Made by a program: the position numbers and the translations under genes. A DNA stretch of 64,000 nt from Bradymonadia bacterium (GTDB lineage: Bacteria; Myxococcota_A; Bradymonadia; UBA7976; UBA1532): the NCBI GenBank assembly GCA_044376085.1, contig JBILLN010000017.1:3186-67185 (forward strand), given 5' to 3'. Positions 28,529 to 45,866 of the stretch are shown here, one piece after another. Position 1 is the first letter of the stretch. Every line of letters begins with the position of its first letter. The notes under the pieces are model-generated. The model ran no database searches and had not been told where the DNA came from. It saw nothing but the letters and a program-made list of their open reading frames with translations.

Positions 28529-28546
28529 AACCGAGACGAACCGACG

Positions 28547-29111: not shown

Positions 29112-31646
29112 GTGCCCTCGGAGACGGCGCAGGCGCTCGTCGCGCCGTTGGGGGTGGTTGCGCAGGCGTTCGACGACACGCCCGAGGCGGCCATTCTGCG
29201 GCGGCTGCGGGTCGGTGCCGTCTCGATCCCGACGGCCCCTCCCGAGCGGCAGGCGGCGTACGCCCGGGCGCTGCGCGAGGTCGTGGGCGCCCTGCGGCCC
29301 GCCGTCGAGGCCCCCACCGCGCCGGCAACCGGGTCTTTTGTCGCCGCGCCCGCCCCGATCCCCCGGGGCCCGGCAGCCCCGGTCCGCCGCCGCACGGCGG
29401 ACGCCGTGAACGGCTCGACGGCCCCGGCGGCGGAGGCCGATCCCGTGCGCCCGGCGCCGCCCGCGCAGCGGCCCCGCCGGGCCGAAGCCCCTCCGCCGGC
29501 GCCCCCCCCGCCGCCGCGGGAGGACCATCAGCTTCCGCCGACACCCCAGGCGGCGGCCTTCGATCGCCTCTGCCCGACCCCCCTGACGTCGCTGCCGGGG
29601 GTCGGTCCCTCGGTGGCCGCCCGGCTCGAAGCGGCCGGCATCCGGGACATCGGCGACCTTCTGCTGCTGCGTCCTCGCAAGTACCAGGACCGGCGCGACG
29701 TCACCCCCATCGCGGCGCTGACGGCCGGTGAGTTCGCCGTCGTACACGGTCGCATCACGCGCGCCAGCGCGGGGTTCGGGGGCGGCGGTCGGCGTTTCAT
29801 GATGGACCTCACCGACGATACGGGCACCCTCGTGTGCACGTTCTTCCGGATCAACACGGGCTTCGCAGCCCGCCAGTGGACGGTCGGGCGCGAAGTGACG
29901 GTGGCGGGTCCCGTGACCCTGTACCGCGAACGCCTGCAAATGGCCCATCCGGCCGTCGATCTGGGGGACGCGGCGTCGTCGACGGGCGAACTGCGGCCGA
30001 TCTACCCCGAGATCGAGGGCCTCGGAGAACGGATCGTCCGCAAGCTCGTGCGCGCCGCGCTGGACGGACACGCCGGGGAGTTGCCCGAGTCGCTGCCCCC
30101 GGCCGTGCTCGAGCGGACGGGCCTGCCCGGCCTCGGGGACGCCCTCCGCCGGGTCCACGCCCCCCCGCCGGACGCCGATCCCGCCGCGTTCCTTCAGTTC
30201 CGGGACCCCGCGCTGAAGCGATTCATCTTCGACGAGCTGCTCGCCCTTCAGCTCGCGCTGGGTTTCCGTCGACGAACGGCGGAGACGCGGGCGCCGGCCC
30301 CCATCGCGCCCCCCGCGGATCTGGACGGGTGGCTGGGCCGCGTGCTGCCGTTCGCCCCCACCGGAGCGCAGCGCCGCGTCATCGGGCACATCCGGGACGA
30401 TTTGGCCGCCGGGCGTCCCATGAACCGGCTCCTCCAGGGGGACGTGGGCAGCGGCAAGACGGCGGTGGCATACGCGGCCGCGCGGTTGATGCAGACGGCC
30501 GGCTTCCAGACCGCTTTGATGGCGCCCACGGAGATCCTCGCCCAGCAGCACCTGCGAACCCTCGGGCCCCTTTTCGAGGCGGCCGGACTCCGGGCCGCCG
30601 TACTCACGAACGGCCTGCCGCGGCGTGAGCAACGTCTGATCCGCGAGCTGACGCTGGCGGGGGCGGTGCACTGCCTGATCGGGACGCACAGCCTGCTCTC
30701 CGAGGATCTCGGGTTCGCCCGCCTCGGGCTGGCGATCGTGGACGAGCAGCACCGCTTCGGGGTCCGGCAGCGGCTCGCCCTCCGACAGAAGGCGGTGGTC
30801 CCGCACCTGCTCGTCATGACCGCCACGCCGATTCCCCGGACGCTCGCGCTGACGGCCTATGGCGACCTCGAGGTTTCGGTGCTCGACGAGCTGCCCCCGG
30901 GGCGGCTGCCGGTCAAGACGACCCTTCACCGCCGCAGCATCCGCGACGAGGTCTTCACCCGGGTCCGCGGCCTCATCGCCGAGGGTCGACAGGCCTATGT
31001 GGTCTTCCCCCTCGTCGAAGAGTCGGAGGCCAGCGACCTCGCCGACGCGACCTCGTCCCACGAGGCTTTGAGTCAGGGCGCGTTCGCCGGCCTTCGGGTG
31101 GGGCTCATCCACGGTCGCATGGCCCCCGAGGCCAAGGACGCCGCGCTTCGCGCGTTCGCGGCGGGTGCGCTCGACGTGCTGGTCACCACCACGGTCATCG
31201 AGGTCGGGATCGATGTCCCGAACGCATCGGTGATGATCATCGAACACGCCGAACGGTTCGGGCTCAGCCAGCTGCACCAGCTCCGGGGGCGGGTCGGGCG
31301 CGGCGGACACGCGGGCTTCTGCCTGCTGCTGTGCGACGAGCACCCGACGGAAGAGGCTCTCGAACGCCTCCGGACGATGGTGCGGACGCAGGACGGCTTC
31401 GAAATCGCCCAGGCCGATCTCGAGCAACGCGGGCCGGGGGAGGTCCTCGGCACCCGCCAGGCCGGTGTCACGGATCTGCAGATCGCCGATCTGGTGCGCG
31501 ACGCCGCGCTCGTCGAGCTCGCCCGCGAGGTCGCCACCGAGCTCTTGACCCGCGATCCGCAGCTGCGCGCCGCTGAGCATGCCGTCCTGCGGCGGGTGGT
31601 CTGGTCGAAGTGGGGCGAACGCCTCGAGCTCGTCGAGGCCGGTTAG
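29112..31646 (+). CDS. recG: ATP-dependent DNA helicase RecG. The 5' end is uncertain because a Pro/Ala-rich region precedes the wedge domain.
   Basis: LTSLPGVGPSVAARLEAAGIRDIGDLLLLRPRKYQDR matches the RecG N-terminal signature. Walker A is GDVGSGKT. The DEQH box is present. The TRG motif is HQLRGRVGRG. The open frame extends back to 28947, overlapping greA. The first plausible start is a GTG at 29112, and others occur up to about 29530. Confidence 0.8.
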   Translation: MPSETAQALVAPLGVVAQAFDDTPEAAILRRLRVGAVSIPTAPPERQAAYARALREVVGALRPAVEAPTAPATGSFVAAPAPIPRGPAAPVRRRTADAVNGSTAPAAEADPVRPAPPAQRPRRAEAPPPAPPPPPREDHQLPPTPQAAAFDRLCPTPLTSLPGVGPSVAARLEAAGIRDIGDLLLLRPRKYQDRRDVTPIAALTAGEFAVVHGRITRASAGFGGGGRRFMMDLTDDTGTLVCTFFRINTGFAARQWTVGREVTVAGPVTLYRERLQMAHPAVDLGDAASSTGELRPIYPEIEGLGERIVRKLVRAALDGHAGELPESLPPAVLERTGLPGLGDALRRVHAPPPDADPAAFLQFRDPALKRFIFDELLALQLALGFRRRTAETRAPAPIAPPADLDGWLGRVLPFAPTGAQRRVIGHIRDDLAAGRPMNRLLQGDVGSGKTAVAYAAARLMQTAGFQTALMAPTEILAQQHLRTLGPLFEAAGLRAAVLTNGLPRREQRLIRELTLAGAVHCLIGTHSLLSEDLGFARLGLAIVDEQHRFGVRQRLALRQKAVVPHLLVMTATPIPRTLALTAYGDLEVSVLDELPPGRLPVKTTLHRRSIRDEVFTRVRGLIAEGRQAYVVFPLVEESEASDLADATSSHEALSQGAFAGLRVGLIHGRMAPEAKDAALRAFAAGALDVLVTTTVIEVGIDVPNASVMIIEHAERFGLSQLHQLRGRVGRGGHAGFCLLLCDEHPTEEALERLRTMVRTQDGFEIAQADLEQRGPGEVLGTRQAGVTDLQIADLVRDAALVELAREVATELLTRDPQLRAAEHAVLRRVVWSKWGERLELVEAG

Positions 31647-31677
31647 TCCCGGACGGTGCCCGAGCGGGGCGGAAGAC

Positions 31678-32982
31678 CTACCGGTCTCCGAGGCGCTCGA
31701 GGCGCTCCAGATTGCGACGCAGCACGTCGGATCCCGGCCGTTGCCGAAGCGCTTCCGTGAAGTGCCGACGCGCGCACGGCAGGTCGCCGGCCTCGGCGCA
31801 GGTCGCGCCGAGATTCTGGTGGGCCACGAAGCTGTCCGGATCCGCCTGAAGTTCGGCCGTCCAGAGCGTCGACTCCGTCTGCCAGTCTGCGGCGCGGAGC
31901 GGCGTGAGCGCCAGACCGAGCAGGGGCGGGAGGGCCAGACCGAGGCGGGCGGGCGGGCGCAGGCGGTCCCAGAGCGCCGCGACGACGAGGCCGAGGCCAA
32001 CCAGCGGCACGTACAGGTACCGCGGCGCGACGAGGGTGCTGATGGGCACCAGATGCAGCACGGGGAGGAGCGTCCCGAGCGCGAGGAGCGTCCCCCAACG
32101 AGCGACGCCTCGTCCGCGCCACACGAGAGCGGCGCCGCCCACGAGCAGGACGATGCCGACGATCGTGTCGAAACCGAAGTGCGGGAGGTCCGGCAGCGCG
32201 TAGACCGCCCGGAGATCGATCGGCAGGACCGCCAGAGCGGCGTAGAACGCCGTCAGGTTCGGCACGGCGACCGGACGGTCGGCCGGGTCCACCAGGCGAA
32301 GGGCGGGGCCCTCGACGTCCGCCAGCAGGCGGCCGGCGATCACGGCCACGGCGACGGCACCCAGGGCGAGTCCGACCGTGCGCCGGTGCCGACCCGGCGC
32401 CGCCAGCAGACAGAGCGCCGGCAGGGCACCGAGGGCGACCTCCTTCGAACCGAGCGCCAGGCAGAAGGCCAGGAGGGCACCCAGCGAACCCCATCGCGTC
32501 CCCGCGACGACCCCGTGGGCGGCCAACAGGCAGAAGAACGCCGCGAACAGGTCGGTCCGCCCGGAGATGAAGTCGACCGCCTCCGTCAGGGCCGGATGCA
32601 GACCGAACGTGGCCGCTCCCAGCGCGGCGGCCACGGTGGACAGGCCAAGGCGTCGCCCGAGCCCGAAAACGAGCGCCACGTTTGCCAGATGCACGAGCAG
32701 ATTGGTCAGGCGGAACGCGAGCGGCGCCCCTTCGGTCAGCTGCCAGGTGACGGCATTGACCAGCACGGGCAGCGGCCGGAGGTACCCTCCGCCGGGCGCC
32801 GAGAGGGTCGCGGGAAAGAAGTCCGAGAGCGCCTCGGGCAGCGCGGTGTCGACGCGGTGCGCCGTCGGGCGGTCCCGGAGAAGAATGAGGTCGTCCCAGA
32901 CGAAACCGCCCCCCAGCGAGGGGACGTGCACGAGGGCGCACACGAAGAGGAGGCCGAAGAGGAGGCGGTGGGCGAGGGTCAA
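31678..32982 (-). CDS. Polytopic membrane protein with C-terminal TPR repeats (GT-C/PMT-like membrane domain plus TPR; TMTC-like architecture).
   Basis: It has about 11 hydrophobic helices and the N-terminal loop GGGFVWDDLILLRD. The C-terminal TPR region is HQNLGATCAEAGDLPCARRHFTEALRQRPG. It lies immediately downstream (68 nt) of metalloprotease gene 1. Confidence 0.6.
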   Translation of the reverse strand: MTLAHRLLFGLLFVCALVHVPSLGGGFVWDDLILLRDRPTAHRVDTALPEALSDFFPATLSAPGGGYLRPLPVLVNAVTWQLTEGAPLAFRLTNLLVHLANVALVFGLGRRLGLSTVAAALGAATFGLHPALTEAVDFISGRTDLFAAFFCLLAAHGVVAGTRWGSLGALLAFCLALGSKEVALGALPALCLLAAPGRHRRTVGLALGAVAVAVIAGRLLADVEGPALRLVDPADRPVAVPNLTAFYAALAVLPIDLRAVYALPDLPHFGFDTIVGIVLLVGGAALVWRGRGVARWGTLLALGTLLPVLHLVPISTLVAPRYLYVPLVGLGLVVAALWDRLRPPARLGLALPPLLGLALTPLRAADWQTESTLWTAELQADPDSFVAHQNLGATCAEAGDLPCARRHFTEALRQRPGSDVLRRNLERLERLGDR

Positions 32983-33051
32983 GAGCGGGCCTGGGGCGGC
33001 CCGGGCCGCGGGTGAGGGGGAGCCGCGGGGGAGGGGGCGGGGCGCCGGCGG

Positions 33052-36000
33052 TCAGTCGTCGTAGGGTTCGCTGACGCGGCGGAACATGCGGAACTGGCTG
33101 ATGAGGTCGCTGAAGTGACCGAGCTGGGCCCGGCGCTGCTCGAGCTCGGTCAGCGCGGCGGGCTCCGTCGGGTTCTGCTCCTCGAGCGCCGCGAGGGCGG
33201 CGGCCTGCTCGTTGAAGTAGGTCAGCAGCGACACGCTGATGGACTCGCCGTCGACGACCTGGGGCGCCACGTACGTCACCCGGGTGATCGGGTCGAGGTA
33301 CTTGACGACGGGCGTGTCTTCGGGGAGCTCCCGCGCCTCACCGGACCCCTCTTCGAAGAGCATGATGTAGTCGCGGAAGTCGGTCTCGCCGTCGAAGGAC
33401 GAGGAGTTGTAGACGGCCGACAGACCGAGCGTGCGCCAGAGCAGGGCAGGGGGCACCTGAGCGTCGATGCGCAAGGGCATTTCGGTGGGCGACGCCGCCT
33501 CGGCGGGCGCGCCGGGGTCGGCCTCGAAGCCCCAGGTCTGCGGATCGACCAGGTTTTCGGCCGTGACCCGGCCCTCGTCGTCCACGACCAGGCCGGTGTG
33601 GCTCAGGGTGCCGATGCCGAGGTAGGAGAACAGCATGTCCTTGGCCATCTTCACGAGCTCGGGGCGGAACAGCCGGTAGTAGTTGATGGAGAACCGCCGG
33701 CTGTCACCGAAGTCCGTGACGTTGAAGAAGTTCGTCGAGTCGTCGAGCAGGAACTGGAGGAACGCCGACTTGTCGAAGAACGTCCCGATGTAGTCGATGT
33801 TGTAGAGGTACTGGTCGTCGTACCGGAGGAACTGGTCACGCCCGAGGCCCTCGGGCACGTCCACGTACTGCTCACAGGTCTGTCCGGTCTCCGGCAGGAA
33901 GACCCCGCGGGTCGCGTCGAGGCAGTGCCGACCGGGGACCGGCGTGCCCATCACGCGCGAGATGAAGTTCAGGGACTCGAGCGCGGCCTTCAGGTAGTCG
34001 CGGCCGATCGCGGAGGTCTGGTTGCCGTAGACGTAGTACCGGACAGCGTAGGTCAGGTCGTCGATGAGGCCGGCCTGCCGCCCCATGAACCCGTTGACGA
34101 ACCCGCTCTCCATCCGCCCGCGCCGGAAGTTGTTGAAGAAGTAGTAGTTCCAGTAGCGGCTGATCGAGTTGTGGACGACCTCGTGGTTGCTCGAGCCCTG
34201 GTCGAACATCTTGCAGCGGGACCGGAAGAGATACGCGTGCTCGCAGTACGCATAGGGCACCTCCCGGGCAGTATGGAAGGTGACGTCCGGATCGCTGATC
34301 GAGTCGATGATCGCGGCTGTATTGGCCTGGATGCCGGCCGAACGCTCGCGGACGACCTCGTGCACGTCGGCGTCCTTGCGGGCCTTGAGGGCGTCGAGGT
34401 CGTCGTTGAGGAGCGACGGCACGGCGTCGGCGCCGTAGACGTAGGCGACGTAGAGGCCGAAGCCCGGGATGACCGGGAGCTTCACGCTGTCCTCGAAGAC
34501 CTCGATCTTGCGCGCATAGGCAGCCTTCATGGCGGCGTGGTCGTACTTGCCGAGGCCCTTGGTGTCGCTGTTGAAGCGCCCGTGGTAGTCCATGATGGTC
34601 GAGTAGGTGTACTCGGGGACGCGAGCCTCCGCGCGGTCGTCGATACCGTTGTCGTCGTTGTCCCCCGGGGCGATCTCGGCGACCTTCTTCCAGTACTCGT
34701 CCTGGTAGTTCAGCGCGTCGACGGAGCCCTCGAAGTTGTGCGTGAGGCCCATCGTGTGGCCGATCTCGTGCAGCGTCACCCCGCGGTAGATCTCGCGGCG
34801 GAGAATCTGGAAGAGCTCCTCGGGATCCCGGTCCTTGAGCTCGAGGGCCAGGCCGATCACCGCGTCGTCCATCATCTCGAAGGTGTCGATGCGGTGGTTG
34901 CCGAGCCAGGCATTGCGCTTTTCCATGCGCTCCGCGTAGGCACGCAGATCGGTCGCTGCCTCGGTGGCGGCCTGCTTCAGGGCCGGGCTGGGGCGATCGG
35001 CGGGCTCGCCGGCGTTGAAGACCGGGGCCAGGAGCTGCTGGAGCTCGTTCGGCACCATCATCGCCGCGAAGTCCGGATCCTCCATGGCCCGGGCGAGGCG
35101 GGCCTGACCTTCGCTCTGGACGGCCCGCTCGAGGGTGGCCGGTTTCGCCAGGGCGCGGACCGCCTTGAACTCGTCGCCCATCGCGCGCGGATCGACGCGT
35201 TTGCCGGGCTGCACCGCCGAGGGGACGAGCCCCATCTGGTTGCGGGCCTTCTGGCGGCGGGCCTCCGCTTTGGCGACGGTCGCAGCGGACAGGCCCTGAG
35301 TGGCCGTCTCCGTCCCGCGGCTGCGCTCCAGCCAATCGGAGACGTTCTTGCCCTGGAGGAGGTCGGCGAGGGCCAGGTCGCCGTTGATGGCGCGGACGGT
35401 ATCGACGGCGTTGCGGGCGTAGTTGTCGAGGGCGGCGCCGTAAATGTTCGCGTTGGCGCTGATGATGCGGCCGTTCTCACCATCCGTGCCCGAGGGACCG
35501 TACCCGAGGGGGCCGTCGGGCTGCTGCTCGTTGACCCAGTTCAAGAAGCTGAACCGGACGTCCCCGACCTTCTGGTACTGGAAGTAGTCGGCCTCGCCGG
35601 CGTCGAGGGTGGCGCGCTTGAGGGCCGCGCAGACGCGGTGCAGGTTGCCGGGGACGAGGACCTTCCGGAGGCGGGCGACCGCCGTGGCGTCGAAGTCCGT
35701 CGGTTCGTCGCCGGACAGGATGTGGGTCTGCGGCTTCGTTTCGTCGGCGACGAGGGCCGCCTCGACGTGGGGGTAGAACGCGGGGTGCTCGGTGAGGTAG
35801 TCGACCACGCCCCGGACGCCGCAGGTGTTCTCCCGAATCTGGTACATCCCCCGATGCTGGAGTTCGTCGCCTTCGATGAAGTAGTGGCGGCCGGGCTGGG
35901 CCTTGCTGTAGGCCTCGATCTCCGAGCGGAGGGCGGCATCGTCCCGACCGGTCCCGGCCCGGACGGCGTCCATCATGGCCGCGTCCCAATCCTGCGCGAT

Positions 36001-37578
36001 GCGGACCGTCTCGGCCTTGAGGTCTTCGGGGAAGTCGATGTTCAGGTAGTAGACGATGGGCCGCGGCTTCCGGTCGGCCATCGGGATGGCCTTGGGCTGA
36101 CCGTCGGTGCCGGCGACGCGGACGGGCTTCCCCTCGGCGTCGAGCACGATGGTGGGCTGGCCGTCTTCGCCGGGCTCGGTCTCGAACTCGTAGGCCGTCT
36201 GCCAGATGGGGTGGATGTTGACGAAGTACTGGCGCTGCTCGTCGCGACCCGCGCCGGTCTGGCGGTCGTATCCGGGGCGCTCCGTGCGGAAGAAGCCATG
36301 GCGCTCGAACTGCTGGAAGCTCGAGTCGTCGCAGTCGCGCTCGGTGTAGTACCCGGGGGCGAAGTAGTTATCGAGCGCCGTGAAGAGGTCCGGATTGCAG
36401 GCCACCTCGGCGAAGGGCACGGAGCACTCGCCGGGGCGCCCGGCCTGCGCGTCGTCGAACGTGCGGATGCAGGCTTCGTTCTCGGTGCACTCCGAGTCGG
36501 CGAGGCAGTTCGGCTGGCAGAGACCATCGCGGCAGGCGTTGCCGAAGCTGCACGCCGTCGAATCCGTGCAGCCGCGGCACAGGCCCTCGACGCACGTCAG
36601 CCCGTCCGAGCAGTTGGCGTCCGACGCGCACTGGCAGTTGGCGTCGACGCAGACGCAGAGGCCCTCCTGACACTCGAGGCCGTCCGGGCAGGCCGTCCGC
36701 TCGTCGCAGCTCCGGGACGGATCGTTGCTGCCGAACCGCTTGAGCGGGACGGGCAGGAACATCGTCTTCAGCGGCTTGCCATCGTCGTCGGTGTGCAGCA
36801 GCAGGTCGTCGTACTGGGTCGGCTCGAAGCGGGCCGACTCGACGTGGTCGATCTGCCAGAACGAGTGGCGAAGCCGAACGTCGGAGGAGGCGCAGCCCCA
36901 CTCGCCGTAGAGATAGCCGCACGTGAAGTCGTCGCCGACGATCCGCCGTGTGGTCATTTCGATGTAGCCGGGCTCGATGACCGGCTGGTGGGGCGAGAAG
37001 CGGTACTCGGTGTCGAGGTCCAGGCGAACGACACCGCCGACGACGGAGTTCACGAAGTTCAGGAACTCCCCGAAGTCCGCGGCACCGCCGACCGCGGTGT
37101 CGACCCTGATCCGGAAGTACTCGCGCTCGTCCCAGGGACGGTCCGAACTGTTCTCGCCGATGACGTTCGACTGCTCGCCGGTCGCCGAGTTGTAGCTGCG
37201 CTTGATGTCGAAGTGGCTGACGACGTCGAACATCGCAACGGGGTCGCCCTTGTAGTCGGACCCGGGCAGCGTGCGGTCTTCGTCGATGCCTGGCACGCCT
37301 TCGTGCGTGCGGTAGGCGATGAGTTTGTCCTCGCGGATCTCCCAGCGAATCTTCTCGATGTCCGCCTCGAGGCCGACGAACGCGCCCGAGAGGCCGGTGC
37401 CCGGATCGGACTCGACGATGGTCTGCCGGTAGTACCACTCCTTCTCGAAGAGGGACTTGGACAGATAGCCGGGCTGAACGGTGTTGATGTCCCCGACGGG
37501 CTCCGCACAGGCGGCCGCCAGGAAGCTCACGGCGAGGGCGGCGAGGCCGCGGGTCGTGCGATTGAGATGAGCGATCAT
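33052..37578 (-). CDS. Giant metzincin-type zinc-metalloprotease lipoprotein (about 1508 aa) with an inserted myxobacterial cysteine-rich repeat module.
   Basis: The signal peptide with lipobox is MIAHLNRTTRGLAALAVSFLAAAC, with GAGGGAG upstream. The zinc site is HEIGHTMGLTHNF (HExxHxxGxxH), and the Met-turn is STIMDY. The Cys-rich insert is CDERTACPDGLECQEGLCVCVDANCQCASDANC... The start was set inside the 1701-aa ORF. Confidence 0.7.
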   Translation of the reverse strand: MIAHLNRTTRGLAALAVSFLAAACAEPVGDINTVQPGYLSKSLFEKEWYYRQTIVESDPGTGLSGAFVGLEADIEKIRWEIREDKLIAYRTHEGVPGIDEDRTLPGSDYKGDPVAMFDVVSHFDIKRSYNSATGEQSNVIGENSSDRPWDEREYFRIRVDTAVGGAADFGEFLNFVNSVVGGVVRLDLDTEYRFSPHQPVIEPGYIEMTTRRIVGDDFTCGYLYGEWGCASSDVRLRHSFWQIDHVESARFEPTQYDDLLLHTDDDGKPLKTMFLPVPLKRFGSNDPSRSCDERTACPDGLECQEGLCVCVDANCQCASDANCSDGLTCVEGLCRGCTDSTACSFGNACRDGLCQPNCLADSECTENEACIRTFDDAQAGRPGECSVPFAEVACNPDLFTALDNYFAPGYYTERDCDDSSFQQFERHGFFRTERPGYDRQTGAGRDEQRQYFVNIHPIWQTAYEFETEPGEDGQPTIVLDAEGKPVRVAGTDGQPKAIPMADRKPRPIVYYLNIDFPEDLKAETVRIAQDWDAAMMDAVRAGTGRDDAALRSEIEAYSKAQPGRHYFIEGDELQHRGMYQIRENTCGVRGVVDYLTEHPAFYPHVEAALVADETKPQTHILSGDEPTDFDATAVARLRKVLVPGNLHRVCAALKRATLDAGEADYFQYQKVGDVRFSFLNWVNEQQPDGPLGYGPSGTDGENGRIISANANIYGAALDNYARNAVDTVRAINGDLALADLLQGKNVSDWLERSRGTETATQGLSAATVAKAEARRQKARNQMGLVPSAVQPGKRVDPRAMGDEFKAVRALAKPATLERAVQSEGQARLARAMEDPDFAAMMVPNELQQLLAPVFNAGEPADRPSPALKQAATEAATDLRAYAERMEKRNAWLGNHRIDTFEMMDDAVIGLALELKDRDPEELFQILRREIYRGVTLHEIGHTMGLTHNFEGSVDALNYQDEYWKKVAEIAPGDNDDNGIDDRAEARVPEYTYSTIMDYHGRFNSDTKGLGKYDHAAMKAAYARKIEVFEDSVKLPVIPGFGLYVAYVYGADAVPSLLNDDLDALKARKDADVHEVVRERSAGIQANTAAIIDSISDPDVTFHTAREVPYAYCEHAYLFRSRCKMFDQGSSNHEVVHNSISRYWNYYFFNNFRRGRMESGFVNGFMGRQAGLIDDLTYAVRYYVYGNQTSAIGRDYLKAALESLNFISRVMGTPVPGRHCLDATRGVFLPETGQTCEQYVDVPEGLGRDQFLRYDDQYLYNIDYIGTFFDKSAFLQFLLDDSTNFFNVTDFGDSRRFSINYYRLFRPELVKMAKDMLFSYLGIGTLSHTGLVVDDEGRVTAENLVDPQTWGFEADPGAPAEAASPTEMPLRIDAQVPPALLWRTLGLSAVYNSSSFDGETDFRDYIMLFEEGSGEARELPEDTPVVKYLDPITRVTYVAPQVVDGESISVSLLTYFNEQAAALAALEEQNPTEPAALTELEQRRAQLGHFSDLISQFRMFRRVSEPYDD

Positions 37579-37592
37579 TGGTCGGGTCTCCC

Positions 37593-40500
37593 TCACTTCC
37601 CGAGGTCCATGACGGAGCGCAGGAGGCGCATGTCGTCGATGGTGCTGAGGTAGAACTCGAGGGTCTGGTCGGCGTTCTCGAGGTCGTTCTCGCGTTGCGG
37701 ATTCTCCGGATCGGCGTCGAAGGCGCGCTTGGCGGCGTTCCAGTCTTCGGCGGCCTGCTTGGCGACGCGGAGGAGTCGGTAGGCGACGGAGAGCCCGTCG
37801 CGGGTCTGCGGGGCCTGGAAGATCTGGCCGGTCTTGGGGTTCTCGAACGTCGCGACCAGCGCCCCGTCCGCGATGGCCCGATCGTCGCCCGAGCCCTTCT
37901 CCTGCACGGCGATGTACTCGTAGAAGTCGAGCTTGGTATCCCCGGGGCGCGAGTTGAGCTGGGTCCCGGCGAACAGCCAGTACCGCATGAGGTCGAAGGG
38001 CGTGTTCGTCCAGATCTGCACGGGCTCGATCTCGTCGCCGTTCTCGTCGACCGGCGCCTCGGAGTGGCCGGGCAGGCGGCCGTCGACGGTGGAGAAGTCG
38101 AACATCGTGGGGAAGGTGTGCACCGCCTCGCCCTTCTCGTTCTTCGTCGTCGACCACTGGAACGCCCGGTGTCCGAAGTTGCCGAGGCCGGCGTCGAGGA
38201 GGTCGAGCGTCAGGTCGAGCAGGCGGTCCTTGAAGACGTCGTAGAACCCGAAGCGGAGGTCGATCTCGCCCGCGGCGTTGACCGGCGGGCGGATGAAGAC
38301 GTTGCCGGCGTTCAGGAGCGGGATGATGAAGTTCTGCTTCTCGAAGAACGAGCCCATGTACTCGTACTTGGTCTGATAGTCGTCCGAGAGGTCGATGTAC
38401 ATGTCGCGGCCGACGCCCAGGGGGAGTTCCATCCGGTCACAGGCCTCGCTGCGGAAGTAGTCCGGGTTGAACCCGAAGGCCCAGTACGGGACGTAAGTGA
38501 TCTGCTCCTTGAGGGAGTTGCCCGTATTGGCCTTGCAGTACCAGCCCGGCTCGGGCGCGCCGACGACCTGCATCGTGAAGTCGGTGGCGATCATGGCGGC
38601 GCGCAGGAGGTCCTCGGTCAGGTCCATCGGGGTGCCGTCGCGATTCACGTACTGCTGGAAGAACGAGTAGTGCTTGTAGGGGTAGTTCAGGTAGGGCAGC
38701 AGGCGGCCCATGCGGCTGAAGAACCCGAGATAGAACTGGTACTCGTCCCGACCGCGGCGCCAGGAGTTGAAGAAGTAGTAGTTCCAGTAGCGCTGGATGG
38801 CCGAGCGGACGGCTTCTTCGTGGGTGGGGCCCTCGTCCCAGGTGCGGCACTTGGGGTCGCGACCGTTGAAGTAGTCGAAGCAGTAGAAGTACGGCACCGT
38901 CCGGTCGCGCCAGTAGCCCTCCGCGCCGGCGTCCGGGCTCTCCGCGAAGCGCTTGCCGTTCTCGCGGATGCCTTCGCGCGCCTCGGCGATGACCTCGTCG
39001 ACGAGACGGTCCTCGCGGCGGGTCAGGTTTGCGGTGCTGCCGCCGAGAAGCTGCGGGATCTTGGTGTAGTGGTCGTACTCGAGGTGGAGATCCAGCCGGC
39101 TGGGGACCTCCACGCTCTCGTCGAAGGCCTCGATGAGCCCCGTGTACGCGAACTTGATGGCGGCCTGGTCGTACTTGCCGAGGCCGTGGAAGTCCGAGTT
39201 GAAGCGGGCGCCGTAGTCCATGATCGAGGTGTAGCGGTACTCGGGCTGAAGGTGCTCGTCGCGCTCCTCGTCCGTGTCGTAGCGCTCCTCGAGGTCCCAG
39301 AACGTGTCGAAGTAGTTCAGCGCGTCGTGCGAGGCCCGGAAGTTGTGGGTCATGCCCAGCGTGTGGCCGATCTCGTGGAGCATCACGCCGCGGAAGATCT
39401 CCTTGCGGAGGTCCTCGTAGACCTCGACCGGGTCCCGCCCCTTGAGGCTGAGCGCCCGGCCGATGACCGCGTCGTCGTAGAACTCGGGCAGGGTGATGTT
39501 GCGCTCGATGTAGAAGTCGGCGCGCTTCTGCATGTGTTCCGAGATGGCGGCGGGGTTGGCGGCGACCTCGATGGTGGCCTCGAGGAGGTCCTCCGGCATG
39601 TCCTCGCCCTCGTGGGCGTTGGGGTCCCACTGGAACAGGCGGTAGAGCATCGACATCACGGGGCGGGGGAGCATGCGGGTGCGGAGCTCCGGGTTGTCCC
39701 GCAGGCGCTGCTTCATGAGGTCCATCGGATCGGGTCCGGCGGCCTGGGCGAACATGGGGTCGTCCGCCCGCTTCAACTCCGACCGCGTGACCATGTCGTG
39801 GGACATGCGGCTCAGGTCGACCTTGCCGTCGGCCGAGCGGAAGCTCTCGGGGTTGGCGGCCTGGAACGTCGAGAAACGCTGCTTCAACGCGGCGCGCTGG
39901 GCCTCCGTGACGGTGAGGGGCTGGTCGGCCACGCTCTTGTTCCGAAGGTCGAGCCAGTCGGTGATCGTCTTGCCCGAGGCGATGTCCTCGAAGGCGTCGT
40001 CGATGTCACCATTGAGGAAGCGGACGAGGTCCATCGAGTCCCGGGCGTAGCCGTCGACCGCCGCGCCGTACACGTAGGCGTTGCCGCTGATGATGCGGCC
40101 CGTCTCGGCGTCGGGGCCGGAGGGGCCGAAGCCGAGGGGACCGGAGGGCTGGTCTTCGTTGACCCAGTAGACGAAGTTCCAGCGAACGTCACCGACCTGC
40201 TGGTAGGTGAACTTCTCGAGGCCGCGGGCGCGGCTCTCGGCCGTCAGCGCGGAGCAGACGGGCTCGAGGTTGCCGGCGAGGATGTTGTTGGGGTTGCCGG
40301 CATCCACCGCGTCGCTGTCGAGGTCGTCGGCGTGCGTCACCGAACGGACGACGTCGACGAGTTCGGGGACGCGCTCGAGATAGGCGTCGATGACCTCGCG
40401 GCGGCAGTCGTTGTCGTCGATGCGGTAGGCCGCGCCGTGACCGGTCTGCTTCTTCAGCTCGGCGCGCAGGGCCTCGGGCGACTTGCCCTGAGCCGAGGCG

Positions 40501-41792
40501 ATGGCATTGACGAAGAGGCGGTCCCAGTCGGCGGCGATCTCCTGGGCGGTGCCCTTGAGGTCCTCGGGGAAGTTCACGTTCAGGTGGTAGACGATGGGCC
40601 GCACCTTGCGGTCCTTGACCGGGATGACCACCGGATTCCCGTCGGCATCCCGCTTCAGTTTGGGCTTGCCGGCCTCGTCACGGGCAATGACCGGCGCGCC
40701 CGTCTCGTCCTCGGTCATCTCCCACGCGTAGACCTGTTCCCAGATCTTGTGGTGGTTGGCGTAGAAGTTGCGCAGCTCGTCGTGCCCGTTGGGGAGCCGG
40801 CGGTTGGCGTCGTAGCGCTCCGTGCGGAAGAACCCGAAACGACCCATCTGGTTGTGGGTCAGCGGCTTGCAGTCCTCTCGGCGGTACTTGCCGCGGAGCT
40901 GCTCGAGCACGTCGTCGGTGCACTCGACGTCGACGTAGTCGACCCCGCCGTCCGGCTTGGGGACCGAGACGGTCAGCGAGTACATGATGGCCCCGTTCTC
41001 GTCGCGGACGAACTCGCGGTCGAGGTAGGAGCGCGGCTCGAACTGCGCGGCGTCCTCGGGGTCGATGCGCACGAAGCTGTGGCGCACCTTGACCTCGCCG
41101 AGACCGCAGGAGTTCCGGGTGTTCGTGGACGTCCGGTAGAAACCGTACTCGATGAAGCAGGTGTAGCCGCCGTCGGTGACGGTGTACGACGTCGTGAACG
41201 AGATCGTCCCGTCCTCCAGATCCGCCTGGAAGTGGTCCGGATTGGCGATCTCCGTCTCACGGGCCCAGTAGGTGCCCGTCGAGAACGTCGCGAACAGCTT
41301 GGCGAAGTCCTGACCGACCGCCGCCGCCGACGACCAGTCCGCCCGGAAGAAGTCGCGCTCGAACCAGGGACGCAGCGAGCTGTCCTCGTTCAGGACGTTG
41401 CTCTGGGTGCCGTTGGCGCTGTTGTAGTCGCGCACGATGTCGAAGTGTTCGACGCCGCTGACGCGCAGGATGGTGTCGCCCTCGAACGTGGCGCCGGGCC
41501 GCGTCTCGTCCTCGTCGAGGCCGCGGATGCCCTCGTGCGTCCGGCGGGCGTGCAGCGCATCGCCGTAGAACTCGAACTTGACCTTCTCGACCTTGCCCTC
41601 GAGGCCGACGAAGCCGATGCCGACGTCCGGCGGGACGTCGACGATCGTCTGGCGGTAGTACCACTCGCCATCGAGCATCGCCTTCTTGAAGTAGTGCGGT
41701 TGGACCCGGTTGACGTCCTTCACCTCTTCCGCACACGACGGCAGAAGAGAGATGAGCGCGGGTACGACGGCGGCCTGCCAGAAACGTCGCAT
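37593..41792 (-). CDS. Giant metzincin-type zinc-metalloprotease lipoprotein (1399 aa), a paralog of the downstream gene.
   Basis: The signal peptide is MRRFWQAAVVPALISLLPSC (lipobox). The zinc site is HEIGHTLGMTHNF, and the Met-turn is TSIMDY. It is colinear with gene 1 over most of its length (EWYYRQTIV, QSNV, FFRTER, LGFGPSGPD, RYWNYYFFN). Confidence 0.7.
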   Translation of the reverse strand: MRRFWQAAVVPALISLLPSCAEEVKDVNRVQPHYFKKAMLDGEWYYRQTIVDVPPDVGIGFVGLEGKVEKVKFEFYGDALHARRTHEGIRGLDEDETRPGATFEGDTILRVSGVEHFDIVRDYNSANGTQSNVLNEDSSLRPWFERDFFRADWSSAAAVGQDFAKLFATFSTGTYWARETEIANPDHFQADLEDGTISFTTSYTVTDGGYTCFIEYGFYRTSTNTRNSCGLGEVKVRHSFVRIDPEDAAQFEPRSYLDREFVRDENGAIMYSLTVSVPKPDGGVDYVDVECTDDVLEQLRGKYRREDCKPLTHNQMGRFGFFRTERYDANRRLPNGHDELRNFYANHHKIWEQVYAWEMTEDETGAPVIARDEAGKPKLKRDADGNPVVIPVKDRKVRPIVYHLNVNFPEDLKGTAQEIAADWDRLFVNAIASAQGKSPEALRAELKKQTGHGAAYRIDDNDCRREVIDAYLERVPELVDVVRSVTHADDLDSDAVDAGNPNNILAGNLEPVCSALTAESRARGLEKFTYQQVGDVRWNFVYWVNEDQPSGPLGFGPSGPDAETGRIISGNAYVYGAAVDGYARDSMDLVRFLNGDIDDAFEDIASGKTITDWLDLRNKSVADQPLTVTEAQRAALKQRFSTFQAANPESFRSADGKVDLSRMSHDMVTRSELKRADDPMFAQAAGPDPMDLMKQRLRDNPELRTRMLPRPVMSMLYRLFQWDPNAHEGEDMPEDLLEATIEVAANPAAISEHMQKRADFYIERNITLPEFYDDAVIGRALSLKGRDPVEVYEDLRKEIFRGVMLHEIGHTLGMTHNFRASHDALNYFDTFWDLEERYDTDEERDEHLQPEYRYTSIMDYGARFNSDFHGLGKYDQAAIKFAYTGLIEAFDESVEVPSRLDLHLEYDHYTKIPQLLGGSTANLTRREDRLVDEVIAEAREGIRENGKRFAESPDAGAEGYWRDRTVPYFYCFDYFNGRDPKCRTWDEGPTHEEAVRSAIQRYWNYYFFNSWRRGRDEYQFYLGFFSRMGRLLPYLNYPYKHYSFFQQYVNRDGTPMDLTEDLLRAAMIATDFTMQVVGAPEPGWYCKANTGNSLKEQITYVPYWAFGFNPDYFRSEACDRMELPLGVGRDMYIDLSDDYQTKYEYMGSFFEKQNFIIPLLNAGNVFIRPPVNAAGEIDLRFGFYDVFKDRLLDLTLDLLDAGLGNFGHRAFQWSTTKNEKGEAVHTFPTMFDFSTVDGRLPGHSEAPVDENGDEIEPVQIWTNTPFDLMRYWLFAGTQLNSRPGDTKLDFYEYIAVQEKGSGDDRAIADGALVATFENPKTGQIFQAPQTRDGLSVAYRLLRVAKQAAEDWNAAKRAFDADPENPQRENDLENADQTLEFYLSTIDDMRLLRSVMDLGK

Positions 41793-41907
41793 TCTTCACA
41801 CCTCGTGGGTTGGCATTCGAGCGGCCCCCCGTTTGGGACCCGCGCCACCCCCCCTGCATGCCGAAGCGTGCATGGATTGACGCGAATCAAGGGCCGGGGG
41901 CGACGTA

Positions 41908-41924
41908 GGCAACTCCCGTGCCGC
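41908..41924 (-). promoter_or_regulatory. Sigma-54 (-24/-12) promoter upstream of metalloprotease gene 2.
   Basis: The minus-strand sequence is GCGGCACGGGAGTTGCC, i.e. GGCACG-N4-TTGC with canonical GG/GC spacing. It lies about 115 nt upstream of the ATG at 41792. An A-tract is immediately upstream and two G8 tracts lie further upstream. Confidence 0.5.
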
Positions 41925-42014
41925 TTTTTTGGCAAGCGAAAACGCGCGGTCGGGGGGGGCGGTCCGGTCGGAGCGGCGCCGGGGGGGGCGAACGTGAAGA
42001 AACGAACGGCGGGT

Positions 42015-43028
42015 TCAGGTCTCGGGGACGGGGTCGGCAGCGGGTCCGCCGCTGAGGGCGGGATCGGGATCGCGGCTGGGGGCGCGGCGACCGTTCGGGC
42101 GGTGGCGGGCGAAGTACCAGGCCGCCGAGCAGGCGGTCTTGACCGTGTCGGCCACGCCCATGCCCTCCAGGTTGGGCCAGAACAGATTGCACTCGCCGCA
42201 GGGTTCGATCTCCTTGCGGCGACCCGTGCGGTGGTACTCGCGGTACTTCGAGGCGGTATTGCCCCGGTACACCTCGAGCACGGACTGCTCGCGCACGTTG
42301 CCCCAGGTGTACTCGCCCTCGTGGTCCTGGCAGCAGAGCGTGACCTTGCCGTCGCTCAGGATGTCGAGGCGGGTGATGTGTTCGCAGCCGTAACTCGGGA
42401 CGGGGAACGCGGAAGGGATGTCGCCCTTGTAGTTGAACTGCCCGACGATGAAGGGCTGCACCCCCATGCTTTCGCAGTAGTCCGAGAAGGCGTCCTGCTC
42501 TTCCAGCGTGGTGTCTTCCATCCGGACCATGCGGAACTGGATCTTGGGGGCGACCTTGCTGCGCCGGACGGGGTCGACCAGGTACTTCATGTTGTCGAGC
42601 GTGCGCTCGAGCTTGAAGCCCATGATGTTCTTGTACCGGACGGGATCGAGGGTGTTCAGGCTGATGGTCAGGCGGTCGACGCCCCCGATGGAGACGAGCT
42701 CGTCGATGCGCTTCGGCACGAGGCCGTAGCCGTTCGAATACAGGCCGAGGCGGGTCTTCGGCAGGCGACTGCGGATGTGCTGGAGCCGACCGATGATGCG
42801 GGGGTCGACGAAGGGCTCGCCGTTGAGGAACGGTTCGATCTCTTCGAGCGGGAAGGCCCGGCAGTCCTCGACGATCTTCTCGAAGAGGTCCTGGTCCATG
42901 TGGAACTTGTCGCGAGCCTTGAAGTTGTACGGGCAGAACGGGCAGGCGGCGTTGCAGCGGCTGGTCGTCTCGATGGAGACCATGCGCGGGTACTCACCGC
43001 CATCCATGACGCGTTGACGGAAGATCAT
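42015..43028 (-). CDS. Radical SAM enzyme with a SPASM/twitch-like C-terminal Cys-rich region.
   Basis: The radical SAM box is SIETTSRCNAACPFCPY (Cx3Cx2C). The C-terminal Cys residues are LCCQDHEG ... CGECNLFWPN. The composition (rich in K, N, Y, F) is atypical for this window. The start is at MIFRQRVMDGG, with GAGGA 7 nt upstream. Confidence 0.75.
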   Translation of the reverse strand: MIFRQRVMDGGEYPRMVSIETTSRCNAACPFCPYNFKARDKFHMDQDLFEKIVEDCRAFPLEEIEPFLNGEPFVDPRIIGRLQHIRSRLPKTRLGLYSNGYGLVPKRIDELVSIGGVDRLTISLNTLDPVRYKNIMGFKLERTLDNMKYLVDPVRRSKVAPKIQFRMVRMEDTTLEEQDAFSDYCESMGVQPFIVGQFNYKGDIPSAFPVPSYGCEHITRLDILSDGKVTLCCQDHEGEYTWGNVREQSVLEVYRGNTASKYREYHRTGRRKEIEPCGECNLFWPNLEGMGVADTVKTACSAAWYFARHRPNGRRAPSRDPDPALSGGPAADPVPET

Positions 43029-43071
43029 GTGGACGTCCTCGCGGAGAGTGAGATGAATCGAGGGCCGTCGA

Positions 43072-43086
43072 GCAAGATGCGTGCCC
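43072..43086 (-). promoter_or_regulatory. Sigma-54 (-24/-12) promoter upstream of the radical SAM gene.
   Basis: The minus-strand sequence is GGGCACGCATCTTGCT, i.e. GGCACG-N4-TTGC. It lies about 45 nt upstream of the ATG at 43028, within the 157-nt gap after the GT4 gene. Confidence 0.5.
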
Positions 43087-43185
43087 GGGACCCGAGGTTG
43101 CGGGTCGTCGTTTCCGGAGTACGCCTGCTCCAGATCGACCTCCCCCTGGCGCACGGATACCGCAGGTCGACGCGGGTATGCGAGG

Positions 43186-44361
43186 TCAACGCCGCGCGGC
43201 CAGCCGCTCCTCGTAGAAGGCCCGCAGGCGCTCGCCCCGCGCGTCCCAGGTCAGCGAGGCCGCCAGCGTCCGGGCGCCCCGGGCGAGACGTGCCCGGAGG
43301 TCCGGGGCCTCGAGCAGGCCGCGCAGGGCGCTCACCAGAGCGGGGACGTCGTCGGGGTTCACGAGGCGCGCGTTCTCGCCGTCGCGCAGAAGCTCCGTCG
43401 TATCGGGCAGGTCCCCGGCCAGCACGGCGCGGCCGGCCGCCAGATAGGTGAAGAGCTTCAGGGGCATGACCGTCGTCCCCTCCTCGGTGAGGGGGCGGCG
43501 GCTGGGCGGAACGAGCAGCACGTCGGCCGCCAGGTGGGCCTGCTCGAGGCGCTCACCCGTGAGAAATCCGAGGAAACGCACGTTCTCGAGGCCCTGGGCA
43601 GCGGCTTTCATCTCGCGCGCGTCGTCGGTCCCGTCGTGGCCGACGAAAACGAAGCGGACGTCCGGCATCCGGCGGGCGGCGTCGATGAAGAGGTCGCAGG
43701 CTTTGGCGCGCCCGAGCCGGCCCGCGTACACGGCGGTGGGCCCCTCGGAAAGTCCGAGGGCGGCGCGCGCCGAGGCGGGGTCGCGGTCCGTCGCGAGGAG
43801 TCGGGCATCGAACCCGTTGTACAGCGTGACGACCTTCTCCGGGGGCACGCCGTCTCGAACGAACTGCTCCCGGACGAGTCGGGAGTGGACGATCAGCCCG
43901 GCGAAGGCGCGCAGCGGCGTCAGGTGGCGAAAGACCGGGCGCACGGCGGGGAACTGGGCCGTCAGCGGGCGATAGGTCTCGAAGAAGAGCGGTCGTCGCG
44001 CGCCCAGCATCGCCAGGGACGGCAGGAGCGTGCGGGTGTGGACGAGGTCGTAGGGGCGTCGCAACGCCGAGCCCGTGGCCAGCGCGCCGCCGGCGAGCTT
44101 CGTCAGCAGGCGCGGGCCGCTCAGCGCGCCCGGAACGGGGCAGAGTCGAAACTCGCAGCCCGTGGCGTAGTGGGCCCTCAGGGCGTCGTGGAGCGCCGCC
44201 CGGGCGGAGGCGTCCCGGACCGCCGCGGCGTTCGGCGCAACGGGGAAGTACAGGTCGACGGCCACGCCCGTGCGGCCGAGCGCCGACAGGGCGTTGACGA
44301 ACTGAATCGTGTCCGCCCCGTGGCCGGGCAGGACTTCGTCGGTCAGAAAGGCGATGCGCAT
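43186..44361 (-). CDS. GT4-family glycosyltransferase (GT-B fold).
   Basis: The N-terminal domain is MRIAFLTDEVLPGHGADT. The C-terminal nucleotide-sugar domain is EEGTTVMPLKLFTYLAAGRAVLAGDLPD (an EX7E-like region). The start was set at MRIAFL inside the longer ORF. Confidence 0.7.
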   Translation of the reverse strand: MRIAFLTDEVLPGHGADTIQFVNALSALGRTGVAVDLYFPVAPNAAAVRDASARAALHDALRAHYATGCEFRLCPVPGALSGPRLLTKLAGGALATGSALRRPYDLVHTRTLLPSLAMLGARRPLFFETYRPLTAQFPAVRPVFRHLTPLRAFAGLIVHSRLVREQFVRDGVPPEKVVTLYNGFDARLLATDRDPASARAALGLSEGPTAVYAGRLGRAKACDLFIDAARRMPDVRFVFVGHDGTDDAREMKAAAQGLENVRFLGFLTGERLEQAHLAADVLLVPPSRRPLTEEGTTVMPLKLFTYLAAGRAVLAGDLPDTTELLRDGENARLVNPDDVPALVSALRGLLEAPDLRARLARGARTLAASLTWDARGERLRAFYEERLAARR

Positions 44362-44396
44362 GGCGCGGCGCGCATGCGACGATCGTGCCAGCGACG

Positions 44397-45374
44397 TCAG
44401 GGGATGTCGGACGCCAGCCACGCCGCGAGGGGCGCGAAAACCGCCCGCTCGGCGGGCTCGCTGATGAAGAGGTCCGCGTGAGCCATCGGCGTCGCGGCGT
44501 CGCCGGCGACGACCACGCGCCGGGCGTGCGCCGGTGCACCGATGGTCTCGTCCCCCGTGCGAACGACCGCCTCGGGAACGATGCCGTCGGCGTTGGCGAC
44601 GATCGTGAGGAGGGGGTGCGCGACCCGGGCGAGATCGGTGGTCAGGTTTCGCCGATCGAGCACGAGGTCCCGCTGGCGGATCCAGCGGGCGATCTCGAAG
44701 TTGATGCGCGCGACGGGGTCGTCGACGGTGTTCACCAGGCTTTCGGGTCGGCTGAGGTCACAGATGCGCGGGTTCAGGTAGAGGTCGAGCGCGCCGGGCA
44801 CGCGGGCGATGGCGGGCAATGCCAGCCGCGCCAGGGTGCGGGTGCCGCGCATGGCGGGCAACCCGAGGGGAAGCTGTGCCAGCGCCCGCACCAGCGGATG
44901 CGCCGTCGTCCAGGAGAGGGGGCCGCCCAGATTCACGAGGCGGCGGAGGGGCGCGTCGGGACGCCACGCCGCCTGCATGAAGACGTAGGTCGCGCCGAGG
45001 CTGCATCCGATGGCGTCCACCGGGCCGGGCGGCAGCGCGCTGTGGCGGGGGACCGCGTCGAGGACCGCCCCCAGATCCACGACGCCCACGTCCGCGAGGC
45101 CGAACCCCCTGCGCCGGCCGCGACCGGGGATGGGGTGTGCGTGACCCTGCCCGCGCAATTCGACGCAAAAGACCTCGAACCCGCGGTCTGCCAGGTATGC
45201 GGCCAAGGGTCGACCCGTGGGGTGGTACCCCAGGATGTACGCGTTCATGGCGAAGCCCGGCACGATGACCACGGGGCGGCGGTGCAGGTCGAGGCGCTGC
45301 GGATCGCGATAGCGGTGCAGGGCGAGGCGCCAGCCAGCCCCGTTCTCGGTGAAGTAGGTCCGTCGTTCGAGCAT
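44397..45374 (-). CDS. Alpha/beta-hydrolase fold protein (esterase/lipase/thioesterase-like).
   Basis: An HG-type oxyanion region is VVIVPGFAMN. The nucleophile elbow is GCSLGA (GxSxG). C-terminal Asp/His candidates are present. The start was set at MLERRTYF inside the 763-aa ORF. Confidence 0.65.
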   Translation of the reverse strand: MLERRTYFTENGAGWRLALHRYRDPQRLDLHRRPVVIVPGFAMNAYILGYHPTGRPLAAYLADRGFEVFCVELRGQGHAHPIPGRGRRRGFGLADVGVVDLGAVLDAVPRHSALPPGPVDAIGCSLGATYVFMQAAWRPDAPLRRLVNLGGPLSWTTAHPLVRALAQLPLGLPAMRGTRTLARLALPAIARVPGALDLYLNPRICDLSRPESLVNTVDDPVARINFEIARWIRQRDLVLDRRNLTTDLARVAHPLLTIVANADGIVPEAVVRTGDETIGAPAHARRVVVAGDAATPMAHADLFISEPAERAVFAPLAAWLASDIP

Positions 45375-45527
45375 GGACCGCAGTCTGACGAACCGGGGTC
45401 GTCGTGTCACGGCTCGCGCGCGGCCGGCGCCTGCGGTGGCCACCCGAAGGCCACCCGGGGCGCCAGTTCGAGGCGTCCGGACCCACCCGCGCCCTCGCTT
45501 TCGGCGAGCGAAGGGCCCCGGACGCCC

Positions 45528-45542
45528 GGCCCGAGGTTTGCA
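45528..45542 (+). promoter_or_regulatory. Candidate sigma-54 promoter upstream of the ACP gene (one mismatch in the -24 box).
   Basis: CGGCCCGAGGTTTGCAA is GGCCCG-N4-TTGCA. The GG-to-GC spacing is correct and TTGCA is a perfect -12 box. GGAGG is 5 nt before the ATG at 45573. Confidence 0.25.
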
Positions 45543-45572
45543 ACCCGGGTGAGCGACGCCCCGGAGGCGGAC

Positions 45573-45866
45573 ATGGACGACCTGATGCGCGTGCCGATCT
45601 TCCAGCGCCTGAAGCACATCCTGGTGACCGACTTCGCCAAGGACGAGGCCCTCGTGACGCCGTCCGCGACGTTGCGCGGGACGCTGATGATGGACAGCCT
45701 CGACCTCGTCGATCTCGTGTTCTTCCTCCAGCGGGAGTTCCACCTCGAGGCCCGGCTCGAGGACCTTCGCGACGTGAAGTCGCTCGACGCGCTCGTGACC
45801 TACATCGCCCGCAGCGCCGGCTCGGCGACGAGCCCGGCGACGACGCCGGCAGCCGCCGCGGGCTGA
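45573..45866 (+). CDS. Acyl/peptidyl carrier protein.
   Basis: It is a 97-aa acidic protein with the phosphopantetheine attachment motif LMMDSLDLVDLVFFLQ (DSL). GGAGG is 5 nt upstream of the ATG. Confidence 0.7.
   Translation: MDDLMRVPIFQRLKHILVTDFAKDEALVTPSATLRGTLMMDSLDLVDLVFFLQREFHLEARLEDLRDVKSLDALVTYIARSAGSATSPATTPAAAAG

Follow-up and report, generated by a model that had tools for sequence, protein, structure and literature searches.

A conserved tandem pair of giant DUF4953-family proteins with predicted lipoprotein signals and metzincin zinc sites in a Bradymonadia bacterium

A 64,000-nucleotide stretch of DNA from a Bradymonadia bacterium (contig JBILLN010000017.1; hereafter the window) carries two adjacent genes, A and B, for giant proteins with a predicted lipoprotein signal and a metzincin-type zinc site. 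A first-pass annotation, made from the letters of the window, had read them as a duplication followed by a domain insertion. Judging by the sequences compared here, this history reaches further back and is not confined to the window: A and B are partners in an ancient tandem pair, which many uncultured Myxococcota retain with its gene order unchanged and whose members both keep their active-site residues. We consider it reasonably probable that A and B constitute a co-expressed, cooperating pair of envelope-anchored lipoprotein zinc endopeptidases. The locus is composed as follows.

37593..41792, minus strand: gene A, the upstream or "A-type" copy (1399 amino acids, ATG start; predicted lipoprotein metzincin)
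33052..37578, minus strand: gene B, the downstream or "B-type" copy (1508 amino acids, ATG start; predicted lipoprotein metzincin)
37579..37592, minus strand: spacer of 14 nucleotides from the A stop to the B start

Aligned by BLASTP, A and B are 33% identical and colinear over their full length (679 bits, E=0). A similarity of this strength and extent is not due to chance, and the tandem paralogy proposed from the letters is thus borne out. In A, HEIGHTLGMTHNF lies at residues 806-818 (HEIGHTLGMTH from 806) and SIMDY at 856-860; the corresponding elements of B are HEIGHTMGLTHNF at 937-949 (HEIGHTMGLTH from 937) and TIMDY at 994-998. The distance from the third His to the Met is 42 residues in A (M858) and 49 in B (M996). 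Both proteins therefore contain the HEIGHTxGxTHNF stretch and, as had been claimed, an (S/T)IMDY Met-turn about 40 residues later; that is, the metzincin signature of HExxHxxGxxH plus Met-turn. In an alignment of 42 family sequences with a mean column identity of 31%, H806, E807, H810, G813, H816, N817 and F818 are invariant, as are M858, Y860 and the lipobox Cys20. Across 42-49 family sequences the HExxHxxGxxH motif is likewise invariant, the exception being one distant subfamily with Asn in place of Gly. The signal-peptide Cys is found in 50 of 51 aligned sequences, the remaining one being an N-terminally truncated gene call, and 40 of the 51 fit a PROSITE PS51257-like lipobox, among them B (LAAAC, Cys24). 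A lipoprotein-type signal in both proteins, as first read, is upheld in this way, although the box of A (LLPSC) is atypical.

The pairing is not a peculiarity of the window. Genomic context was retrieved for seven relatives of A, 37-71% identical to it, and in all seven a second family gene is directly adjacent, at a spacing of -4 to 69 nucleotides; including the window, eight of eight loci are paired. In a neighbour-joining tree that included the partners, all upstream copies form one clade and all downstream copies its sister clade. The tree points to a single duplication before these lineages diverged, with the order fixed ever since in all eight loci. With identities as low as 37-40% among the A-type proteins of the lineages concerned, the duplication predates a deep split. 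The two genes stay adjacent and in order even where the flanking genes are rearranged (loci L086 and L090).

Tandem pairs also recur elsewhere in the family. In more distant subfamilies there are pairs whose upstream copies group together across genomes, as do their downstream copies: three sets of loci (L005/L009/L030; L019/L028/L032/L033/L037/L038; L012/L014) and the same-contig pairs P0056+P0333, P0290+P0334 and P0307+P0335. Both partners of the distant pairs again have the zinc ligands, the Glu, the Met and the Tyr. In P0056 and P0217-P0260, from metagenome-assembled genomes (MAGs) labelled Myxococcaceae or Archangiaceae, the metzincin Gly is replaced by Asn (HEMGHTLNLRHN, HExxHxxNxxH), with ligands and Met-turn kept, and the tandem partner, for instance P0333, retains the Gly. 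We considered whether one partner could be a pseudo-protease and rejected it, because the apparent loss of the motif is this HExxHxxNxxH form with all ligands, Glu, Met and Tyr in place. From their sequences, both partners look catalytically competent everywhere.

The arrangement of the two genes fits with coupled expression. Because the window has a G+C content of ~70%, the mechanical list of its open reading frames contains many spurious frames, and genes were chosen among them by third-position GC. The limits first given for the pair are exact, 33052 being the first base of the B stop codon and 41792 the A ATG. A longer B of 1701 amino acids from a GTG (33052..38157) was discarded as an over-extension into the 3′ end of A. 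We place the B start at the ATG at 37578, with GGGAG 9 nucleotides upstream and the A stop 14 nucleotides before it; this ribosome-binding site lies partly within the last codons of A. The same ATG is called in public gene calls on identical contigs. The 14-nucleotide spacing and the position of GGGAG indicate a probable operon-like coupling of A and B. Scans with Rfam and for promoters and terminators gave no signal above background. Identical or near-identical A and B proteins occur in several metagenomes and in one "Myxococcota bacterium" MAG, where both (MCK6571864.1 and MCK6571865.1) are annotated "zinc-dependent metalloprotease".

Both proteins belong to DUF4953 ("Met-zincin", PF16313), the family suspected from the start: the gathering score of 24.2 bits is exceeded by A, with 39.5, and by B, with 27.0. 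These matches are partial, covering profile positions 6-103 (A) and 10-36 (B) of 316. DUF4953 is also the precomputed assignment of nearly all homologues. The accompanying suggestion of DUF5117 and DUF5118 did not hold, as PF17148 and PF17162 match neither A nor B at E≤0.1; the control loci L056, L044 and L042 match both strongly. Astacin (PF01400) is matched at the zinc site only, with 20.1 bits for A and 16.3 bits for B (E-values 5e-4 and 8e-3), below its gathering score of 22.5, and the matrixin and reprolysin models likewise reach the zinc site only, below threshold. A sequence search of the Protein Data Bank (PDB) with A and B returned only marginal astacins at the zinc site (E=0.13-0.32).

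Ordinary DUF5118-DUF5117-DUF4953 "zinc-dependent metalloproteases" (PF17162/PF17148/PF16313) are 850-1000 amino acids long and are found in Bacteroidota, Planctomycetota, Gemmatimonadota and Burkholderiales. A and B have in common with them the HExGHTxGLxHN zinc site, the SxMDY Met-turn, the xGxYDxxAI segment, the "RxGFF" element, the "KPIVYY" strand and a "D-x-R-(Y/F)-S...GP...DPxTGEI" catalytic N-subdomain. Unlike them, A and B are 1.6-1.8x longer, carry a lipoprotein signal and form conserved tandem pairs. With hhalign, two parts of A align to the ordinary proteins: A223-577 (E=1.3e-25; end of DUF5117, "RFGFFR" element and catalytic N-subdomain), an alignment that takes in only the last ~65 residues of DUF5117, and A793-895 (E=5.7e-20; zinc site through Met-turn). 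No similarity to them was found by hhalign for A21-240 (E=0.36), A575-800 or A895-1399. Thus, only ~450 residues are homologous to the ordinary proteins. By these comparisons, the giant proteins are best described as an elaborated branch of DUF4953 metzincins, whose apparent additions, all new, are an N-terminal domain, a ~220-residue insertion just ahead of the helix of the active site, and a C-terminal domain of ~500 residues.

The family so delimited is large. An exhaustive HMMER search with A390-1399 gave 1475 representatives when the cutoff was E≤1e-3. Of these, 277 reached E≤1e-30 and are mostly 1200-1800 amino acids long; the family comprises at least these 277 clusters at 50% identity. 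One subfamily query gave 644 matches at E≤1e-20. Family members are annotated only "hypothetical" or "zinc-dependent metalloprotease". The size of A and B, put earlier at two to three times that of typical bacterial metzincins, is real in that both are giants, but it is a trait of the whole family and not of this locus. The taxonomic range was surveyed on one-genome-per-species contigs, and the following holds among the matches listed. The named matches are all MAGs, and full-length relatives occur only in those labelled Myxococcota (Polyangia, Myxococcia), Bradymonadia and Oligoflexales, with few exceptions: a few labelled uncultured bacterium, Proteobacteria, Deltaproteobacteria or UBP6, and one Enterobacteriaceae, which is probably mis-binned. 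In proteins from Bacteroidota, Planctomycetota, Gemmatimonadota, Burkholderiales and other groups, the match is confined to ~775-895 of A.

From the profile alignments and AlphaFold 2 (AF2) models built with a 49-sequence alignment, A is divided into three parts.

40623..41732, minus strand: A residues 21-390, N-terminal domain rich in beta structure and peculiar to the giant family (AF2 model m969c174f3abd, mostly pLDDT >85)
39108..40610, minus strand: A residues 395-895, split metzincin catalytic domain (hhalign and AF2)
37596..39107, minus strand: A residues 896-1399, family-specific alpha/beta C-terminal domain with a long helical hairpin at its end

From residue ~223 on, the first part lies inside the region that aligns to ordinary DUF4953 proteins, and it is A21-240 that has no profile similarity. 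The catalytic domain begins with its N-subdomain (~395-577), is interrupted by a helical, variable insert of ~220 residues predicted at low confidence (~577-790), and resumes at ~790-895 with the zinc-site helix, the Met-turn and a further helix. The AF2 model of A21-900 (pLDDT 82, pTM 0.78) shows the beta-rich N-domain followed by the alpha/beta catalytic region; that of A780-1399 (md10aae1f2bb4) reaches pLDDT 89.8 and pTM 0.88. Foldseek comparison of both models with the PDB gave no significant match (best E 4e-3 and 0.3, query-normalised TM <0.1). About two thirds of each protein thus has a confident predicted structure without a solved relative. The view that the bulk of each protein is uncharacterised therefore stands, there being no significant PDB match and no profile similarity outside A223-577 and A793-895.

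A and B differ in length and Cys content at one site. At the place equivalent to A262-320, where A has 59 residues and 2 Cys, B has 167 residues and 20 Cys. The ~108 extra residues agree with the insert of about 110 residues that had been reported in the downstream copy alone.

36409..36726, minus strand: Cys-rich insert of B (~residues 285-390; 18 Cys, four modules)

The module D-x-x-C-x2-G-x2-C-x2-G-x-C is present four times, the fourth copy being degenerate. The label "Myxococcus-type" that had been attached to these repeats could not be sustained: a scan of just the insert with the Pfam and NCBIfam models (E≤10) gave no match to the Myxococcus cysteine-rich repeat (TIGR02232 / PF13948 / DUF4215). 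That repeat is likewise rich in Cys, Asp and Gly and occurs in Myxococcota surface proteins, but its signature, CGDG...CDDGN, is not present in the insert of B. The best matches were instead the EB module (22.5 bits, E=1.2e-4; gathering score 24.3) and DUF7107 (22.1 bits, E=1.9e-4; gathering score 24.6), with further sub-threshold matches to Dumpy DPY and Dickkopf_N. The EB module, DUF7107 and Dickkopf_N families are mostly eukaryotic. The insert of B has C-x2-G-x2-C-x2-G-x-C repeats comparable with theirs, and all scores are below gathering. We regard it as an array of modules that resemble EB/DUF7107 in Cys spacing, a likeness that does not establish homology.

The number of units varies among B-type proteins.

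0 units, 2 Cys at the site: P0017-P0021 and the partner of P0016
2 units, 10 Cys at the site: P0022, P0027 and the partner of P0011
3 units, 14 Cys at the site: the partner of P0004
4 units, 18-20 Cys at the site: P0025, P0026 and B of the window

The partners of P0024 (4 Cys) and P0007 (14 Cys, with a longer, irregular insert) fall outside this series. Basal B-type proteins are without the insert, and A-type proteins are uniform at the equivalent site. No tandem repeat was found at the DNA level in the insert, so the duplication of the modules was not recent. Read from this distribution, the array appears to have been built stepwise and long ago, within one part of the B clade, going from no modules to two, three and then four. 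The duplication and the insertion that had been proposed are thus both real; what does not stand is the local, recent event that this wording suggests, as the duplication is older than the divergence of the lineages and the insert grew stepwise within part of the B clade. In a distant subfamily, P0043, P0048 and P0053 carry other Cys-rich modules. All three have several of them in the C-terminal domain, and P0043 has one inserted beside the active site as well. This suggests that disulfide-rich surface modules may be a recurrent decoration of the giant metzincin family, acquired repeatedly.

The pair is flanked by carB-greA-recG on one side and, on the other, by a family 4 glycosyltransferase (GT4), an alpha/beta hydrolase, an acyl carrier protein (ACP)-like gene and a tandem pair of giant Ser/Thr kinases. 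The relatives share much of this block in synteny, which points to vertical inheritance in the core genome. Specifically, carB-greA(-recG), A-B, GT4, the alpha/beta hydrolase and the small ACP-like gene are conserved between positions 28529..46000 of the window and L084, L085, L087 and L088, and the A-type proteins of lineages sharing the carB-greA block are 39-75% identical. The conservation of the block may be no more than synteny, or it may stem from a functional connection, such as one with envelope lipid or glycan modification. Among the subfamily loci and the loci of other subfamilies, no third conserved partner gene was found beyond the carB-greA synteny, and the neighbours in other subfamilies are unrelated housekeeping genes. 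As no other functional partner gene is conserved, the paralogue itself is the likely partner of each protein.

Two immediate neighbours were considered as parts of the system and rejected. A radical S-adenosylmethionine (SAM)/SPASM gene (42015..43028, minus strand) lies 222 bp upstream of A. Its NCBIfam scores are far below the cutoffs (tungsten-cofactor radical SAM maturase, 92 against 380 bits; spiro-SPASM, 72 against 250), and its PDB sequence matches, BtrN and YydG, cover the N-terminal ~120 residues only. The gene stands at that position in the window and the closest relative, L084, and is absent in L085-L090; an enzyme that matures A or B as a general feature was rejected, the gene not being conserved beyond the closest relatives. 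Directly downstream of B, between B and recG, 31678..32982 (minus strand) encodes a 434-residue polytopic membrane protein with a C-terminal tetratricopeptide repeat (TPR) region. It has an "FVWDD" motif near the first loop and a very weak match to PMT, a GT-C mannosyltransferase family (E=0.23). It could be a GT-C-type glycosyltransferase, and since it is seen in the window only we do not count it as part of the A/B system.

Further away, a second tandem pair (46002..49715 and 49712..~53269, both plus strand; 4-nucleotide overlap) consists of genes of ~1200 codons for Ser/Thr kinase-AAA16-TPR proteins. In L084 and L085 this kinase pair keeps its synteny with the metzincin genes, and in L088, too, two Ser/Thr kinase genes follow the metzincin pair. 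An outer membrane protein (OMP) beta-barrel-domain protein (PF13505; 53288..53983, minus strand) and a ClpB-type AAA+ chaperone (53988..56675, plus strand) look ordinary.

In the mechanism that we favour, each protein would leave the cytoplasm through Sec, receive a lipid at the invariant Cys and thereby be anchored in the cell envelope. The comparisons show the paralogy, the conservation of motifs and of the pair, the history of the insert and the lack of solved structural relatives; lipidation, localisation, proteolytic activity, the cooperation of A with B and the kind of substrate we infer. Each has a complete metzincin zinc site, made of three His, the catalytic Glu and the Met-turn followed by Tyr, and this site sits in a catalytic domain split by large insertions and flanked by the family-specific N- and C-terminal domains. 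The paralogues would work together, most likely as a hetero-oligomer or as two enzymes of complementary specificity acting on the same protein, either extracellular or in the envelope. The Cys-rich array of B would form a disulfide-knotted surface module in a length-tolerant loop, probably a spacer or a binding module. What suggests cooperation is that even deeply diverged lineages retain both copies, next to each other, in one order and with their active sites intact.

A known system offers a parallel. Meprin alpha and beta, of the astacin family (M12A), are paralogues of each other as well. These multi-domain, membrane-associated metzincins work as hetero-oligomers, and in astacins and serralysins, too, a Tyr follows the Met-turn. 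A and B resemble the meprins in this Tyr (SIMHY in astacins, SIMDY in A) and in their weak Astacin matches; they differ in scoring below the Astacin gathering score, in having Asn and not Glu after the third His, and in their unrelated accessory domains. By analogy, A and B may possibly form a hetero-oligomer in the manner of meprin alpha/beta.

Several observations weigh against a cooperating pair of envelope proteases. The lipobox of A (LLPSC, Cys20) has an atypical Pro at -2, common to its close orthologues, and fails the strict pattern. Foldseek retrieved no solved metzincin from the PDB with the A21-900 model, so that the metzincin fold is backed by sequence and profile only. A literature search on DUF4953, DUF5117, DUF5118, PF16313 and PF17148 found no publications, hence no characterised DUF4953 member, and the term "protease" therefore stands at the level of annotation. 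The trees are neighbour-joining trees on BLOSUM distances and have no support values. Among the distant family loci whose flanks are long enough, about half are single-copy; the fold thus does not oblige its bearers to pair. Finally, a putative interaction of A with B is read from the genes, and tandem retention is also compatible with independent, sub-functionalised enzymes.

That last possibility deserves serious consideration. A and B could be independent envelope or secreted metalloproteases with different substrates, which form no complex and stay adjacent by operon inertia or synteny. Their identity of only 33% is in line with it, and the variation of the B clade from none to four Cys-rich units, at a site where A-type proteins are uniform, suggests divergent surface functions. 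Single-copy members of the family exist, and with the whole neighbourhood (carB, greA, GT4, hydrolase, kinases) syntenic, adjacency may partly reflect genome conservation. Against this reading stand the adjacency and order in eight of eight loci, even amid the rearranged flanks of L086 and L090, the very short spacers, including a 4-nucleotide overlap, and the recurrence of tandem pairs in several distant subfamilies. We thus regard independent enzymes as possible but distinctly the less likely state of affairs. Much further from what we expect, A and B might not be proteases at all; they could be structural or adhesive surface lipoproteins or non-peptide hydrolases, with the zinc site used for binding or other chemistry. 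More than 900 of ~1400 residues are unrelated to any known protease domain, the 220-residue low-confidence insert interrupts the catalytic domain just before the active-site helix, and the literature search found no published biochemistry for any DUF4953 protein. Yet HExxHxxGxxH, the Met-turn and the Tyr are invariant over ~50 sequences with a mean identity of 24-31%, which is the pattern expected of an active enzyme and makes such a role very improbable.

The cooperating pair of zinc endopeptidases, then, is the reading that we carry forward, and it also has a bolder form. Myxococcota, Bradymonadia and Oligoflexia are lineages rich in predators. A and B might be an obligate hetero-oligomeric, outer-membrane-anchored metzincin complex, in which a DUF4953 core is joined to ~900 residues of unseen folds and which, restricted to Myxococcota, Bradymonadia and Oligoflexia, has a lineage-specific role in the envelope or in prey degradation. 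We hold this to be unlikely. If true, it would mean a new peptidase family and, for bacterial metzincins, a quaternary organisation of a new kind.

Myxococcota have a wealth of secreted and surface hydrolases, few of which have been studied. What is new here is the definition of a large family in which tandem pairs have been kept recurrently with both active sites intact; the interest of A and B, moderate in our view, rests on this conserved pairing and on the large share of structurally unassigned sequence. If A and B do not form a complex, they would still be members of a well-delimited new subfamily of DUF4953 metalloproteases. If they do, the pair would be the bacterial equivalent of metzincins that form hetero-oligomers, as the meprins do, and would provide an entry to an uncharacterised function of the cell envelope.

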